Below are positions 32,175 to 37,384 of a stretch of 61,059 bases of DNA, piece by piece. The position numbers and the translations under genes were made by a program. The DNA is from an uncultured Bacilli bacterium. Its GTDB lineage: Bacteria; Bacillota_I; Bacilli_A; RF39; UBA660. The notes under the pieces are model-generated. The model was given only the letters and a program-made list of their open reading frames with translations, was not told where the DNA came from and made no database searches. The stretch spans positions 1 through 61,059 of the forward strand of contig CANRHC010000002.1 of NCBI GenBank assembly GCA_947630305.1, given 5' to 3'. Each line of letters starts with the position of its first letter. The first letter of the stretch is position 1.

Positions 32175-32756
32175 ATGGAAAAAGAAAGAGGTTTTAAAAA
32201 CGCTATTATTTTATTGTTAGTTGTTGCCGTTTTAGGTTTATCAGTAGCTTTCGCATTATTTGAAAGTCAATTAACGGTTAATGGTACAGCTAAGGTTTTG
32301 TCATCAGGCAATAATTGGAATGTAAATTTTAGTGAGGTAAGTGCTGATCATGGTGGATATGCAACTTCTACTGCTGAGACATCTGATGATGCTAAGACTA
32401 CAATTACTTTTGATTGTTCTATCTCATCTAGTGAAGATAGTTGTACATTAAATGGTACTATTAAAAATAGTGGAAAAATTAATGCAAAGTATAAAGGATA
32501 TACTTTACAACTTGATTCTAGTTCAGTAAATGATGGTGTAACGGAAGTATCTAATGATGATATTAAAGTTACTTTAACTCCACCAGTTGGTTGGGTTAAA
32601 GATACTAAAGTTTTAAAAAATAATGATACTGGTTCATTTACGTTAACTGTAAATCCAGAAGACGGAATTACATTTAATGAAGGAACTAGTGGCGATGAAA
32701 CTTATACTATTACATTAACATTTGATTTTGAACAAGCTGATGCTTCTGCACCATGA
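32175..32756 (+). CDS. secreted small subunit 1 with a SipW-type signal (TasA-like fibre subunit candidate)
   Basis: Basic N-terminus, one TM, small-x-small site VAFA|LF, then LTVNGTAKV. The rest is rich in beta-type residues and ends YTITLTFDFEQ. Paralogous to 34990..35547. Confidence 0.55.
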   Translation: MEKERGFKNAIILLLVVAVLGLSVAFALFESQLTVNGTAKVLSSGNNWNVNFSEVSADHGGYATSTAETSDDAKTTITFDCSISSSEDSCTLNGTIKNSGKINAKYKGYTLQLDSSSVNDGVTEVSNDDIKVTLTPPVGWVKDTKVLKNNDTGSFTLTVNPEDGITFNEGTSGDETYTITLTFDFEQADASAP

Positions 32757-33883
32757 GAAAACAAAAAACTAGTAAATGGCTAAAAGCAATTCTTGCATTT
32801 ATTGCTTTTGGCACTTTTTCGTATTATTATTTAAATACTATTAATGTGCCTTATTTAAATTATATTTATGATGCTTATTGGTGTTTTTTGGCAGTTATAT
32901 CTTATTTTTTATTGGGATATAGTAAAAATCGTAATATCTTAAAAAAAGATGTAGTTCAAATTATAATAATATATACAATATTATATTTATTAATAAGTTA
33001 TCTTTTAGGATTATATACTGGTTTTGCTGCAACACCTTTGTCATTGAAATTAATTTCAATAATTAAAAATATATTACCAGTAGTCATTTTAATTTTTGCT
33101 CAAGAAATACTTAGGTTTATATTAGTTAAAAAATGTAATGGCAATCGAGTTTATTTAACTTTAACAACGTTAATGTTTGTTTCAAGTGAAATTGTAACGT
33201 ATTATTTTTTATATAATTTAAATAATTATAGTGAAGTTTTTGAATTTTTTGGTGTTAGTATTTTGGGAACAATCTTTAATAATATTTTATATACTTATAT
33301 AGTATATTATGTTGGTTATGTTCCCAATATATACTATCGTTTAATTATGGAATGTTATATTTATTTTGTTCCTTTTGTACCTAATTTTGGTATTTATTTG
33401 AATACAATATTTCATATAGTTTTACCGGTAATTATAACAATTCATTTAAGTCATTTTTTTGAAAAAGAAGAAAAGACTTATATTAAACATAAATATTATC
33501 GGATATATTATGCGATTTGTATTGTTTTTATTGGTTTAATTGTGTGTTTGACATCTGGTATTTTTCGTTATCAATTACTTGCTATTGCTTCTGATTCAAT
33601 GAATCCTTATTTTAAAAGAGGTGATGCGGTTTTAATTGATAAAAATGATAAGACTTTAGATGTGGATGATGTTATTGCATTTAAAAATGAAAAAAAAATT
33701 GTAGTTCATCGAATTATTAAAGTTAAGAAAATTAAAAATCAATATTATTATACTACTAAAGGTGATAATAATTATAATGATGATAATAATGAAATTGCTA
33801 GTGAAGATATTGTAGGAAAGGTTAATTATATTGTACCGATTATTGGTTATCCAACTGTTTGGTTGAGTGAAATAATGAATTAA
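32753..33883 (+). CDS. SipW-type (archaeal/ER-type S26B) signal peptidase I fused to an N-terminal ~8-TM domain
   Basis: The C-terminal 110 aa carry SDSMNPYFKRGDAVLI, VVHRII and TKGDNNYNDD, the signature boxes of SipW-like peptidases. About 260 aa of polytopic membrane sequence precede them. Confidence 0.75.
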   Translation: MRKQKTSKWLKAILAFIAFGTFSYYYLNTINVPYLNYIYDAYWCFLAVISYFLLGYSKNRNILKKDVVQIIIIYTILYLLISYLLGLYTGFAATPLSLKLISIIKNILPVVILIFAQEILRFILVKKCNGNRVYLTLTTLMFVSSEIVTYYFLYNLNNYSEVFEFFGVSILGTIFNNILYTYIVYYVGYVPNIYYRLIMECYIYFVPFVPNFGIYLNTIFHIVLPVIITIHLSHFFEKEEKTYIKHKYYRIYYAICIVFIGLIVCLTSGIFRYQLLAIASDSMNPYFKRGDAVLIDKNDKTLDVDDVIAFKNEKKIVVHRIIKVKKIKNQYYYTTKGDNNYNDDNNEIASEDIVGKVNYIVPIIGYPTVWLSEIMN

Positions 33884-33888
33884 GAAGG

Positions 33889-34989: not shown

Positions 34990-35547
34990 ATGCATCATAA
35001 AAAGAAATTAAGAAGTATAATTATTGTCATTTTACTTATTTTAGTTGGTACTTTAACAATTGCTTATTCTGGTTTTACTCAAGTTTTAACTATAAATGGT
35101 ACAGCTAAGGTTATTAATCAAGGAACTTGGGATTTAGTTTTTGAAAACATTTCGACAATGAATACAACTGGTTATGCTACTGGAACAAGAAGTAGAGATG
35201 AAACTGAAAAAAATATTGTTTTTTCTTGTGAATTCGTTGCTTATGGCGATTCCTGTTCTTTTACGGCTAATTTAAGTAATCGTGGAACAATAGATGCTGT
35301 TTTAAAAAGTTATGAGATTATTATTACGGAAAATGGTAGTGAAGTTTATCGTGGTACAAATACTAATTTTGTCGATGAAACAATTACTGTTGATTTTACT
35401 AATAGTTTAGATGTTAATCAAACTATTGCATCTGGTGTTAAAAAGCAAGTTGGCATTTCGGTAACTTTAAATCCTGATGCTTATGCTACAGCTACTGATA
35501 ATTATTCCATAAGAATTTCATATAATTTTGAACAAGTTGCAAAATAG
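34990..35547 (+). CDS. secreted small subunit 2 with a SipW-type signal (paralogue of 32175..32756)
   Basis: IAYS|GF cleavage-like site, then LTINGTAKV. Ends YSIRISYNFEQ. Confidence 0.55.
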   Translation: MHHKKKLRSIIIVILLILVGTLTIAYSGFTQVLTINGTAKVINQGTWDLVFENISTMNTTGYATGTRSRDETEKNIVFSCEFVAYGDSCSFTANLSNRGTIDAVLKSYEIIITENGSEVYRGTNTNFVDETITVDFTNSLDVNQTIASGVKKQVGISVTLNPDAYATATDNYSIRISYNFEQVAK

Positions 35548-35560
35548 AAAGGAAAAAAAG

Positions 35561-37384
35561 ATGCTAAAAAGAAAAGTTAAAAAAAGTTCTAATTATCGTA
35601 TATTTCGGATATTTGTAATAGCTTTAGCTATTTTTTTAGCATCTTCTTTTACTATTTCGTATGCTTTATTTAATGCAACTTTAGGACAAAGAGGTCAAGT
35701 ATCGGTTGTTTTATCTGATTCTGATATTGTTGTTACTAAAGTATCTAATCCTGTTATTCATAAAGATGCTACTGTTAGCCAAGAGGCTAGTTATCAAGAT
35801 AATTCTGTTACTTTTTCAATTTTATTAAATCAAACTAATGCTACAGTTACTTATCATATCACAATTAAAAATCAAGGTAGTGCTAATGCTCGTTTTGCAA
35901 GGGTAGAAGAAACAAGTAGTAATGATGCTGTTATATATAGTTTAAATGGAATTGATACATCTGTTATTCTAGCTCCTGAAGAAGAATTAGAATTTGAATT
36001 AGTTATTCATTATTCGGATGAATTTAAATATAATTTCCCTGATGATAGAACAGATCATACAACTTTATCTTTTATTTTTGAACCAACGCTTCGTAATCCA
36101 ATTATTCCAATTACTGGTTCTATATTAGAAGATTCTGGTAATGTTAATGATTTTAGTTTAGGGGCAAAAGCTACTATTACGCTTAGAAATGATAATGATT
36201 TTGCTGTTGAAGTTACATTATCTACATATCGATCTTTTACGATTTATGATCGTCTTGGTGTTGAAAGAACTTTCCATTTAGATGAAAATAGTGAAAATAC
36301 CTTTATTATTTATATAAAAGATAATGATGAAGCTATATCATCTACCGGTATGAATACTGAATTATTTATTTTAGCTTCGGTAAGTGATTATGGTTCAATT
36401 AAAACTTCTGAAATTGATTCTATTAATTTAACATTAGATAAAAAGGGTAAATATCAAATTTTAGCCGGTGGTTTTACTGATCTAGATGATACTGTTGATT
36501 TTTCAACTAATGCAACTGGTAGTGGAAAAATATATGCGACAAAAGGTCTTAATGATAAGAATACTTATTTCTTTAGAGGAAATATTAATAATAATTATTT
36601 TTCTTTTGGCGGTTATGAATGGCGAATATTAAGAATTGATGAAGGTGCTAATATCAGATTAGTTTTAAATGATGTTTTAAAAGATGAAAATAATACGGCT
36701 ATTACTCAAAAATATAAAAATTCTAATACAGCTAGTAGTTTAGATGAAGCTAAAATATTAGTCAAAATGGTTAATGATAAAAATAGTTCTGATATAACTA
36801 GTGCTAGTGGAAATAGTCCTTTATATGGTTACGTAGGTGATACTAGTACGACTTCTTTAAGAGGATGGTATAATAATACTTTCTTAAATACTCCTCTTGA
36901 AGATTATATTGTTGATTCTAATTTTTGCCAAGATGTTGAAGCTGGTACAGCAACTAGTTCTGGTACTGCTGCTAGTGTTTATTATTTTGGGGCTTATCAA
37001 AAAATTGGTAATGATACAGCTTTATATGAACCTTCATTTGATTGTCCTCATGAAAATTTATTTTCGGATAAAGTTGGAACCATTTCTGCTGAGGAATTTG
37101 TTTTTGCCGGTGGTGCTAATAAAACGTCTAATAATACTTTTTTCTTAAATGATGATGGAATTAATAATAATTATTGGACACTTTCACCTTCTTATTATGA
37201 TCCATCATTAACTACTGTTGGTGCTTATGTTGTAGATACTACTGGTAAATTAACCGATTGGCTTAATGGTAATACAATTAATGCTGCTTATGGTATGAGA
37301 CCTGTTATTACCATTAAAGGGACGTATCCTTTAAGTGGATCAGGTATTAAAACTGATCCTTGGAAAATTGAAGGTTTAAGTTAA
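35561..37384 (+). CDS. large secreted subunit: same signal/strand module plus a C-terminal DUF6273-like adhesin-type domain
   Basis: ISYA|LF site. The first module ends TTLSFIFEPT. The C-terminal third has GGYEWRILRIDEG, NNYWTLSPSYYD and YGMRPVITIKG. ATG 35561 is preferred over 35528. Confidence 0.55.
   Translation: MLKRKVKKSSNYRIFRIFVIALAIFLASSFTISYALFNATLGQRGQVSVVLSDSDIVVTKVSNPVIHKDATVSQEASYQDNSVTFSILLNQTNATVTYHITIKNQGSANARFARVEETSSNDAVIYSLNGIDTSVILAPEEELEFELVIHYSDEFKYNFPDDRTDHTTLSFIFEPTLRNPIIPITGSILEDSGNVNDFSLGAKATITLRNDNDFAVEVTLSTYRSFTIYDRLGVERTFHLDENSENTFIIYIKDNDEAISSTGMNTELFILASVSDYGSIKTSEIDSINLTLDKKGKYQILAGGFTDLDDTVDFSTNATGSGKIYATKGLNDKNTYFFRGNINNNYFSFGGYEWRILRIDEGANIRLVLNDVLKDENNTAITQKYKNSNTASSLDEAKILVKMVNDKNSSDITSASGNSPLYGYVGDTSTTSLRGWYNNTFLNTPLEDYIVDSNFCQDVEAGTATSSGTAASVYYFGAYQKIGNDTALYEPSFDCPHENLFSDKVGTISAEEFVFAGGANKTSNNTFFLNDDGINNNYWTLSPSYYDPSLTTVGAYVVDTTGKLTDWLNGNTINAAYGMRPVITIKGTYPLSGSGIKTDPWKIEGLS

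Follow-up and report, generated by a model that had tools for sequence, protein, structure and literature searches.

What would a bacterium make with five tightly packed genes that encode a signal peptidase, a second membrane protein and three putatively exported proteins that begin alike? The question is raised by positions 32175-37384 of contig CANRHC010000002.1 (GenBank assembly GCA_947630305.1) from an uncultured Bacilli bacterium of the GTDB lineage RF39; UBA660, whose analysed stretch of 61,059 nucleotides (nt) is called here the window. As read from the list of open reading frames (ORFs) and their translations, the region contains five co-directional genes, designated A, P, D, B and C in their order along the DNA, with near-zero spacing; the start of P overlaps the end of A by 4 nt, and B begins at the base immediately after the stop codon of D. 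The ORF of D opens with a GTG at 33889 and that of C with a TTG at 35528, and in both cases a later ATG was favoured (33898 for D, with a better ribosome-binding site, and 35561 for C, preceded by GAAAGGA), each being also the start called on sister contigs. The genes are as follows (lengths in amino acids, aa):

32175..32756, plus strand: gene A, predicted AbpX-like fibre subunit precursor, 193 aa, probable major subunit
32753..33883, plus strand: gene P, predicted dedicated signal peptidase I, 376 aa
33898..34989, plus strand: gene D, DUF5305 membrane protein, 363 aa, putative accessory subunit of the signal peptidase or assembly subunit
34990..35547, plus strand: gene B, second predicted AbpX-like subunit, 185 aa, probable minor or adaptor subunit
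35561..37384, plus strand: gene C, predicted long subunit, 607 aa, probable tip adhesin

The reading that we consider probable is that these five genes form one operon for a sortase-independent, chaperone-free filament of the AbpX type within the TasA superfamily, equipped with a lectin-like tip. The original prediction for this locus had proposed a TasA-like surface fibre matured by a SipW-type peptidase; its fibre reading was partly sustained by TasA-superfamily homology and by the dedicated peptidase, and the TasA and SipW labels had to be given up, AbpX being the closer relative.

The three putatively exported proteins and their shared N-terminus

The N-terminal features of A, B and C on which this reading depends are the following:

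32175-32255, plus strand: signal peptide of A (aa 1-27), ending in A-F-A
32256-32297, plus strand: predicted donor strand of A (aa 28-41), LFESQLTVNGTAKV, followed by a beta-rich body that ends in TLTFDFEQ
Within gene B, plus strand: signal ending in I-A-Y-S, then the predicted donor strand GFTQVLTINGTAKV
Within gene C, plus strand: signal ending in I-S-Y-A, then a degenerate predicted donor strand, LFNATLGQRGQVSV

In all three proteins a basic n-region (MEKERGFKN in A, MHHKKKLRS in B and MLKRKVKKSSNYRIFR in C, none of them with an RR motif) precedes the hydrophobic segment, which runs into SVAFA, TIAYS and TISYA, respectively, just before the predicted cleavage site, and the module that follows closes with YTITLTFDFEQ in A, YSIRISYNFEQ in B and TTLSFIFEPT in C. 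All the strings that the original prediction had quoted for the shared signal, the small-x-small site, the strand and the end motifs were found in the translations. The sequences of A and B showed 30% identity over 170 aa (E 9e-17), and A matched the N-terminal 185 aa of C with an E of 1e-7. A profile hidden Markov model (HMM) of the family built from 76 relatives, with the window sequences left out, gave scores of 98 bits for A, 93 bits for B and 37 bits for C (E 4e-10), and these values rose to 138, 140 and 43 bits, respectively, when the window rows were included. By these alignments A, B and C are true paralogues, whose likeness goes well beyond chance.

The signature of the N-terminus was derived from 80 family sequences, with positions counted from the predicted cleavage site. 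Position -1 was Ala in 78 of the 80 and position -3 Ala or Gly in 76, and the strand after the site carried Leu, Met or Phe at +2 (Phe in all of A, B and C), Leu at +6 and Ile at +8 (79/80 each), Gly at +10 (74/80), Ala at +12 and Val at +14. This pattern is that of a canonical AXA site followed by a predicted alternating amphipathic beta-strand. The mean pairwise column identity was 0.56 for the donor strand and 0.52 for the signal h-region, compared with 0.34 for the body; an h-region conserved above the body is unusual for signal peptides, which argues for its recognition by a dedicated enzyme.

No Pfam or NCBIfam family matched A or B, and a sequence search of the PDB with A, B, C and the family profile returned a single match at chance level, Lpg0364. 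That the three proteins might instead be type IV pilin-like proteins or sortase-assembled pilins is hardly credible. A related locus (L001) does adjoin genes for T2SSF, a prepilin peptidase and T2SSE, but A, B and C have no class III signal of the form G|F(T/S)LxE, the basic n-region standing before the hydrophobic segment and the AXA site after it; a regular-expression search found no LPXTG-like C-terminus in any window ORF, a Pfam scan of about 45 window proteins matched no sortase, secretin or pilus ATPase family, and the adjoining enzyme, P, is a class I signal peptidase. These results agree with the original prediction, which had listed the LPXTG signal, sortase, secretin, ATPase and type IV prepilin motif as absent.

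The fused signal peptidase, its putative partner and the spread of the cassette

A signal of this kind would be expected to have its own enzyme, and the gene next to A encodes a candidate with two distinct parts:

32753-33496, plus strand: N-terminal polytopic domain of P (aa 1-248), eight predicted helices, conserved
Within gene P, plus strand: signal-anchor helix (aa 249-268), then a Sec11/archaeal-type catalytic domain (aa ~270-376)

P passed the TIGR02228 model of archaeal/endoplasmic reticulum (ER)-type signal peptidase I (SPase I) with 87 bits against a cut-off of 51.85, and a profile of 20 P homologues matched human SEC11A/C with an E of 2e-20. The plain SipW-type enzyme of the original prediction was not upheld, since P reached 75 bits against the SipW equivalog NF046067, whose cut-off is 190, and has an eight-helix domain fused to it. 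The SDSMNPY, VVHRI and TKGDNN boxes named in that prediction are present; only aa ~250-376, however, are signal peptidase, and the polytopic aa 1-248 had gone unmentioned. P looks catalytically intact and hence active, since Ser282, His319, Asp338 and Asp344 were invariant in 72 sequences.

The AlphaFold2 (AF2) model of P (predicted local distance difference test, pLDDT, 89.9) placed helices at residues 2-29, 35-54, 64-89, 100-127, 132-151, 159-186, 190-204 and 214-242, so that together with the anchor at 249-268 nine long helices lie ahead of a beta-rich catalytic domain, and one short helix lies at the C-terminus. In a Foldseek search only the catalytic domain found matches (SEC11C, 7p2q, 1.7e-6; SipA; SpsB), and for the polytopic domain there was neither a structural neighbour in the PDB by Foldseek nor a Pfam model. 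Within aa 1-248 (32753-33496), the 72 sequences have an invariant Arg121 and near-invariant Glu118, Asn106, Pro109, Tyr83, Gly86 and Gly90, and despite the conserved E118-x-x-R121 no CPBP, Rce1 or exosortase family of Pfam matched P. The polytopic domain may itself act in binding or catalysis. A word-indexed protein search found 549 homologues of P of the same length (375-390 aa), and there were at least 488 relatives in species-representative genomes, the closest of them with 41% identity.

The product of gene D belongs to DUF5305 (PF17231, 62 bits against a cut-off of 29). Its hydropathy profile showed two hydrophobic segments, 16-34 and 243-261, with an extracytoplasmic domain between them and a cytoplasmic domain at the C-terminus, so that the bitopic membrane protein originally proposed is to be replaced by a DUF5305 protein with two such segments. 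The DUF5305 family corresponds to TafG in the haloarchaeal Tafi loci (Tafi papers) and to the "SPI-accessory" protein of abpX loci (bioRxiv 10.64898/2026.01.04.697558).

The co-occurrence of these genes was analysed in 80 loci of species-representative genomes, which contain 81 fused-peptidase genes and were found with a seven-sequence peptidase alignment. A DUF5305 gene lay directly downstream on the same strand in 71 of the 81 cases (68/76 among those with enough sequence), and a subunit gene lay directly upstream in 72 and within 6 kb in 78. Two to four subunit genes were present in 53 of the 81 related loci, and further subunit genes followed DUF5305 in 23 of the 57 loci that could be tested, 14 of these being at least 300 aa long. 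The complete five-gene order (~190, ~378, ~360, ~187 and ~600 aa) was kept in L085, L086 and L088 with 43-75% identity, and since the flanks of these three loci are unrelated to each other and to those of the window, the cassette behaves as a unit. The co-occurrence foreseen in the original prediction was thus observed, the gene set recurring widely and all five genes together in the three loci just named.

The position of the peptidase gene also bears on the possibility that the N-terminal segments stay uncleaved and act as signal anchors, which would make A, B and C type II membrane proteins and leave P to process other substrates. Although the h-region is long and strongly conserved and the AF2 model of A gives one continuous helix over residues 3-29, we regard this as highly improbable, because the near-invariant AXA site stands right after that helix and the peptidase gene adjoins a subunit gene in the large majority of loci (72/81). 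Moreover, deletion of the Tafi peptidase leads to unprocessed precursor and no fibres, and mature recombinant AbpX starting at the aligned position polymerises.

The loci with a fused peptidase carry the taxonomic labels uncultured Bacilli, "Tenericutes", Erysipelotrichaceae, Clostridia, Syntrophomonas, Saccharibacteria, an Acidobacteriota metagenome-assembled genome (MAG) and an Archaeoglobales MAG, and gut samples of humans, rabbits, goats and sheep are the source of many of the MAGs. The occurrence of the peptidase family in Saccharibacteria, which belong to the candidate phyla radiation (CPR; L069, L076, L080), and in the Acidobacteriota (L057) and Archaeoglobales (L081) MAGs points to transfer of the cassette across phyla and domains. 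When the subunit profile was compared with 1.84 billion representative sequences, 7,149 clusters at 50% identity were matched at E<=1e-3 and 4,248 at E<=1e-10, mostly of 185-235 aa, with a minority of 300-800 aa in which the module is N-terminal; no Pfam or NCBIfam model covers the family, which is concentrated in MAGs of uncultured Bacilli and Clostridia and extends to Saccharibacteria.

Some individual loci deserve mention. Two separate systems of fused peptidase and DUF5305 occur in some genomes, i.e. L021, L017/L027 (CASTSB010000003.1) and L023/L024 (one MAG), so each fibre type may have its own cognate peptidase. A subunit-family protein of Syntrophomonas (L063, 10492-11298) carries an LPITG-type sorting signal. 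In L001 (JGI 3300006135, 6568-10749), a subunit gene, the peptidase and DUF5305 are followed by T2SSF, the prepilin peptidase (A24) and T2SSE, and DUF285 repeats are found in the long subunit; the locus recalls the type IV pilus-dependent secretion of the Clostridium perfringens Bsa matrix protein.

Assignment of the subunits and the proposed fibre

A January 2026 preprint on AbpX of Pyrodictium abyssi defines an AbpX clade within the TasA superfamily (bioRxiv 10.64898/2026.01.04.697558). According to that preprint, AbpX polymerises without a chaperone via its N-terminal strand, with donor-strand complementation established by cryo-EM; alongside minor subunits of the AbpX type and a tip protein, the abpX loci encode an SPase I that has ten transmembrane (TM) segments and a DUF5305 accessory protein, and AbpX homologues are reported in Bacillota and Chloroflexota, Thermacetogenium and Syntrophothermus (Syntrophomonadaceae) being in its list of bacterial abpX loci. 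An acidic mature protein (pI ~4, ~15% Asp+Glu) is given there as a trait of the clade, and mature A has an isoelectric point (pI) of 4.14 and 14.5% Asp+Glu, with pI values of 4.47 for B, 4.46 for C and a family median of 4.36.

The AbpX sequence was taken from the supplement of the preprint and checked against PDB entries 9SJ2/9RHP, and Bacillus subtilis TasA was verified against 8AUR. In hhalign the 80-sequence family profile aligned with AbpX at 94.3% probability (E 9.6e-8) over 150 columns, in a register that sets the AFA of the predicted cleavage site on the TYA of AbpX and the following strand on the experimentally defined AbpX donor strand, W2-I12; with TasA the same profile gave 37.7% over 24 columns, covering the PGD...N.G motif only. 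The family HMM scored TasA at 9.1 bits. Searches from AbpX were run on a small enriched database, the 2,548 ORFs of the 80 peptidase loci, in which phmmer matched genes adjoining the fused peptidase in Clostridiaceae (L078, 2e-12), Syntrophomonas (L063, 6e-11), Tissierellaceae (L074, 1e-10), Thermacetogenium (L052), Archaeoglobales (L081, 2e-8) and uncultured Clostridia (L050/L047/L040, 1e-7 to 1e-6), the matches in L074, L081, L050, L047 and L040 being also members of the window subunit family. In the same database jackhmmer from AbpX converged on 153 ORFs, which included 104 of the 106 family ORFs as well as window A (6e-36), B (2.5e-30) and C (1.6e-21).

The models for TasA and camelysin gave a different picture. 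A and B had no match to Peptidase_M73 or BioflmMtrxTasA at E<=1; among the 80 family members, 11 had sub-threshold matches to Peptidase_M73 (best 1.6e-4) and two to the TasA NCBIfam model, at 0.004, and no SipW-signal model matched A, B or C, one of the 80 relatives matching TIGR04089 weakly. The caution of the original prediction about a camelysin/TasA assignment was therefore justified by the HMM searches. On sequence grounds we place A, B and C within the AbpX clade, as divergent members of it, and outside TasA or camelysin proper. The further suggestion of a distinct, undescribed branch did not hold, because abpX loci with the same parts have been described in Bacillota (bioRxiv 10.64898/2026.01.04.697558); the kind of system is thus already known from that 2026 preprint, and the window locus is most likely a divergent, uncharacterised bacterial member of the AbpX-type fibres. 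Within this known kind it is marked by the lectin-like tip and the lack of the calcium signature, and it belongs to a very large subfamily without a curated model.

The predicted structure of A can be compared with the jelly-roll or Ig-like fold, short of one strand, that is expected in this clade. In its AF2 model (pLDDT 89.1) residues 3-29 form a TM helix, the predicted donor-strand region is left free of regular structure (30-49) and ten strands follow, and its best Foldseek matches in the PDB were nearly all donor-strand filaments, headed by the Sulfolobus 0406 thread (7pnb, E 1.3e-3, probability 0.99) and including AbpA (7ueg, probability 0.91), the TasA fibre 8aur, PapG/PapA/PapK, Fim, CS20 and CFA/I pilins, and uromodulin.

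Several points nevertheless weigh against an AbpX-type fibre. The acidic residue at +4, the calcium signature of AbpX, is found in six of the 80 members (as Glu) and in none of A, B and C, which have Ser (with Glu at +3), Gln and Ala, respectively, at this position; calcium coordination is described as frequent in the clade, not universal (bioRxiv 10.64898/2026.01.04.697558). The family HMM scores AbpX at 20.6 bits only, and pairwise BLAST of A against AbpX gave no match, so that the link to AbpX is carried by profile and transitive evidence. The Foldseek matches of A, obtained with a model that still included the signal helix, have low TM-scores (0.30-0.37) and weak E-values, the best being the 1.3e-3 given above, and the 50 matches listed did not include the AbpX entries 9sj2 and 9rhp; the structural comparison proposed in the original prediction thus did bring the TasA fibre and AbpA among the best matches, but only at these scores. 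Finally, the locus encodes no LPXTG or SLH anchor protein by which a fibre could be attached to the cell, and the host is a spore-former and so very probably walled, so that the subunits or the fibre would have to cross a wall.

The low TM-scores are also what one would expect if A, B and C were monomeric secreted or surface proteins, such as lectin-type adhesins or envelope proteins, that share a dedicated peptidase for export control and form no filament, and Ig-like and CARDB/DUF11-type sandwich domains indeed match weakly in some family members. We consider this rather improbable, because the best-conserved part of the mature proteins is the N-terminal alternating strand and no binding surface, because this strand is in register with the experimentally proven donor strand of AbpX and is not folded back into the body in the AF2 monomer of A, and because two to four paralogous subunit genes per locus, the situation in most of the loci (53/81), are expected of heteropolymers.

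A filament of another chemistry was also considered, namely an "exchange-and-lock" fibre of the BsaA type, as in C. perfringens, in which strand exchange is followed by a Glu-catalysed intermolecular Asn-Lys isopeptide bond. Clostridia and Coprobacillaceae are reported to have BsaA-like proteins, which are membrane-anchored and encoded in sipW operons that lack LPXTG; Asn occupies +9 in 45 of the 80 donor strands and Lys +13 in A, and the best structural match, the Sulfolobus 0406 thread, is described as isopeptide-reinforced. This explanation appears very unlikely, as the 80-sequence alignment has no Lys or Glu in the body that is invariant or close to it, the Asn at +9 lies on the outward, odd face while N35 of BsaA shares a face with the core residues V33 and F37, and P is of the fused polytopic type and the peptidase of the BsaA locus a plain SipW.

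Polymerisation of A, B and C by donor-strand exchange, deduced by analogy with the characterised fibres, thus stays the preferred reading, and within it the long protein C would have a place of its own. The parts of C are:

~35561-36090, plus strand: AbpX-like domain, followed by a middle beta-rich region
~36560-37381, plus strand: DUF6273 (C-type-lectin-like) domain, C-terminal

Nine orthologues of C were found, 590-634 aa in length, each sharing its contig with a peptidase orthologue. Their C-terminal regions share the motifs YFSF.G..WRILRID, VGLLS.DE..FAGG, WWTLSP.YYD and IRPVIT, and DUF6273 was matched in seven of the nine (best 5e-6). This domain has been described as C-type-lectin-like, as a receptor-binding domain of gut phages diversified by diversity-generating retroelements (DGRs) and as the N-terminal domain of a gut IgA protease, and abpX loci are said to encode "tip proteins of varying fold" (bioRxiv 10.64898/2026.01.04.697558). 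Because its C-terminal region matches DUF6273, the most economical reading of C is that of a terminal ligand-binding subunit, and its degenerate strand, LFNATLGQRGQVSV, would fit a specialised position in the fibre. The tip or adhesin role originally given to the 600-aa protein was supported in so far as its N-terminal module is homologous to A and its C-terminus is DUF6273; its donor strand is degenerate, as that prediction had also noted. A DGR acting on the DUF6273 tip was considered and rejected, since no template/variable repeat pair was found anywhere in the window, only chance repeats of AT-rich DNA. On a sister contig of the same species (L082, ENA ERZ27249386) protein A is identical and the tip gene encodes 476 aa instead of 607 aa, which may reflect strain-level variation or truncation of the lectin-bearing tip.

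In the mechanism that we propose, Sec would export A, B and C, and the conserved signal, i.e. the basic n-region, the h-region and [ST]-[VI]-[AG]-[FY]-A, would keep them at the membrane. P would then cleave after the AXA site, probably with D as an accessory subunit, the predicted cleavage falling after Ala27 in A, Ser26 in B and Ala35 in C (counted from ATG 35561), and would thereby release an amphipathic N-terminal strand of the form x-Phi-x-x-x-L-x-I-x-G-x-A-x-V. The freed strand (residues ~28-41 of A) would insert into the incomplete beta-sandwich of a neighbouring subunit to build a thin polar fibre, with A as the bulk subunit, B as a minor or adaptor subunit and C at the end, displaying the C-type-lectin-like binding domain. 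The role of A is proposed because its gene directly precedes that of the peptidase, as a subunit gene does in 72 of the 81 loci and as abpX precedes the SPase gene in P. abyssi. With a surface as acidic as this (pI ~4.1-4.5), fibres might bundle in a cation-dependent manner into a biofilm or adhesion matrix, and D together with the polytopic domain of P could serve as a processing or assembly platform.

A stronger form of the last idea would be that the eight-helix domain of P and DUF5305 constitute an assembly platform that reads the signal peptide and couples cleavage to polymerisation in a set order (C first, B next, A last) and to keeping the base of the fibre in place; we put this forward tentatively, as a doubtful proposal. 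If true, it would amount to a functional counterpart, N-terminal and Sec-coupled, of sortases, exosortases or ushers, and to a cross-domain, "signal-addressed" pilus pathway used by thousands of proteins, as yet unannotated, of gut Bacilli and Clostridia and of Saccharibacteria, with a calcium-independent subfamily (no acidic +4) that displays diversifiable lectin tips.

Fibres of the TasA superfamily are emerging as a cross-domain route to biofilm matrices and adhesive pili that needs no chaperones, ushers or sortases, and the sole experimentally studied member of the AbpX clade comes from a hyperthermophilic archaeon. If loci such as the present one were recognised, many surface proteins of gut bacteria now labelled "hypothetical" could be named and assigned a function open to testing. 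Their recognition would also make lectin-tipped fibres candidate adhesion factors and would offer tractable mesophilic versions of the machine formed by the polytopic signal peptidase and DUF5305.

Host, surroundings and comparison with known systems

The window has a guanine-plus-cytosine (GC) content of ~24% and reads clean with code 11. The fibre operon is flanked by housekeeping genes: that for a tyrosyl-tRNA synthetase (TyrRS) lies upstream, and downstream lies one for an enzyme of the CCA-adding or poly(A) polymerase type. A germination receptor operon of the GerA/GerC/GerB type at 42003-45549, minus strand (GerA, 453 bits), identifies the host as a spore-forming Bacillota, and on this basis a peptidoglycan wall is very probable. 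A wall-less, Mollicutes-like host, which would have accounted for the absent LPXTG anchor, was ruled out by this operon and the clean code 11. A scan for promoters and terminators gave counts equal to those of shuffled controls and was uninformative in such AT-rich DNA.

Other elements of the window lie outside the fibre operon. A large cluster for surface-polysaccharide biosynthesis (5203-24463, plus strand), situated ~8 kb upstream of it, encodes a Polysacc_synt_2 dehydratase, a Bac_transf-GT1 fusion, several GT1/GT4 glycosyltransferases, a Polysacc_synt_3 flippase, an MBOAT acyltransferase, an FkbH-like protein and a UDP-glucose dehydrogenase; the cluster and the fibre operon could be parts of one matrix-forming region. 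Between them, at 27168-29533 on the minus strand, a gene for a 716-aa N6/N4 DNA methylase and a tRNA-Arg(CCT) stand among plus-strand genes, and GC skew falls locally to about 0, so this stretch may be a small inserted element. Two overlapping membrane-protein genes (312 and 109 aa; 29644-30880, plus strand) lie just upstream of the TyrRS gene, as they do on sister contigs, and the 312-aa protein has no Pfam match. The strongest repeat of the window by far is a 33-bp tandem repeat at 40539-40631 (2.8 copies, 93% matches, Tandem Repeats Finder score 165), which sits in the 5' end of an AAA_14/DUF4143 ATPase ORF and encodes a repeated IPLKNLQLW peptide; the true start of the ATPase is probably downstream of the repeat, which therefore is likely to be a 5' regulatory or intergenic element.

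When the locus is compared with known systems, the best structural neighbours of A, namely AbpA (7UEG), the 0406 threads (7PNB) and the chaperone-usher pili, are donor-strand-complemented but have no detectable sequence similarity to it; usher pili depend on a chaperone in the periplasm and an usher in the outer membrane, and the genomic contexts of the threads and of AbpA lack the pair of fused peptidase and DUF5305. The sipW-bsaA-bsaB-bsaC locus of C. perfringens resembles that of the window in that it belongs to a member of the Bacillota and encodes TasA-superfamily subunits without LPXTG, for which donor-strand exchange has been modelled. It differs in its plain SipW, in the vWA protein BsaC and in its dependence on type IV pilus genes, which have no counterparts in the window. 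BsaA is anchored to the membrane rather than to the wall and has the isopeptide triad N35-E56-K74, and no such conserved triad is seen in the 80-sequence alignment of the window family. TasA and BsaA both assemble by strand exchange (Bsa and TasA papers).

The B. subtilis tapA-sipW-tasA operon (8AUR) likewise combines a dedicated ER-type signal peptidase with fibre subunits and is sortase-independent. TasA belongs to the same superfamily as the window subunits, with which it shares the PGD..F.v.N.G motif and the terminal F.FE.Q strand, and it assembles by donor-strand exchange using its new N-terminus. SipW, however, has ~190 aa and no eight-helix domain, whereas P has 376 aa with such a domain, and TapA has no counterpart in the window locus. 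DUF5305 is not known from the B. subtilis operon.

DUF5305 is present in the haloarchaeal Tafi system, as the partner TafG, together with paralogous donor-strand subunits, TafA/C/E (tip, adaptor and major), and the S26 peptidase TafD is genetically required for the processing and maturation of TafA (Tafi papers). In contrast to A, B and C, which have no RR motif, the Tafi subunits carry twin-arginine signals; TafD has four TM segments, an N-terminal peptidase domain and an extra C-terminal domain, the reverse of the arrangement in P, and Tafi loci also encode an Lrp-type regulator and the anchor TafF.

The closest likeness is to AbpX and the abpX loci (PDB 9SJ2/9RHP). The differences are that the window family is only remotely related to AbpX, together with the absent acidic +4 and a near-invariant Trp (W48) after the strand; at the level of the locus they are the lack of an LPXTG/SLH anchor and of a regulator, a tip with DUF6273 and an uncultured Bacillota as host. 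The likeness extends to mature subunits of ~160-170 aa that are acidic (pI ~4) and made with an SPase I signal, and to the whole set of an adjacent TIGR02228-type SPase I with about ten helices, a DUF5305 gene, minor subunit genes and a long "tip" gene.

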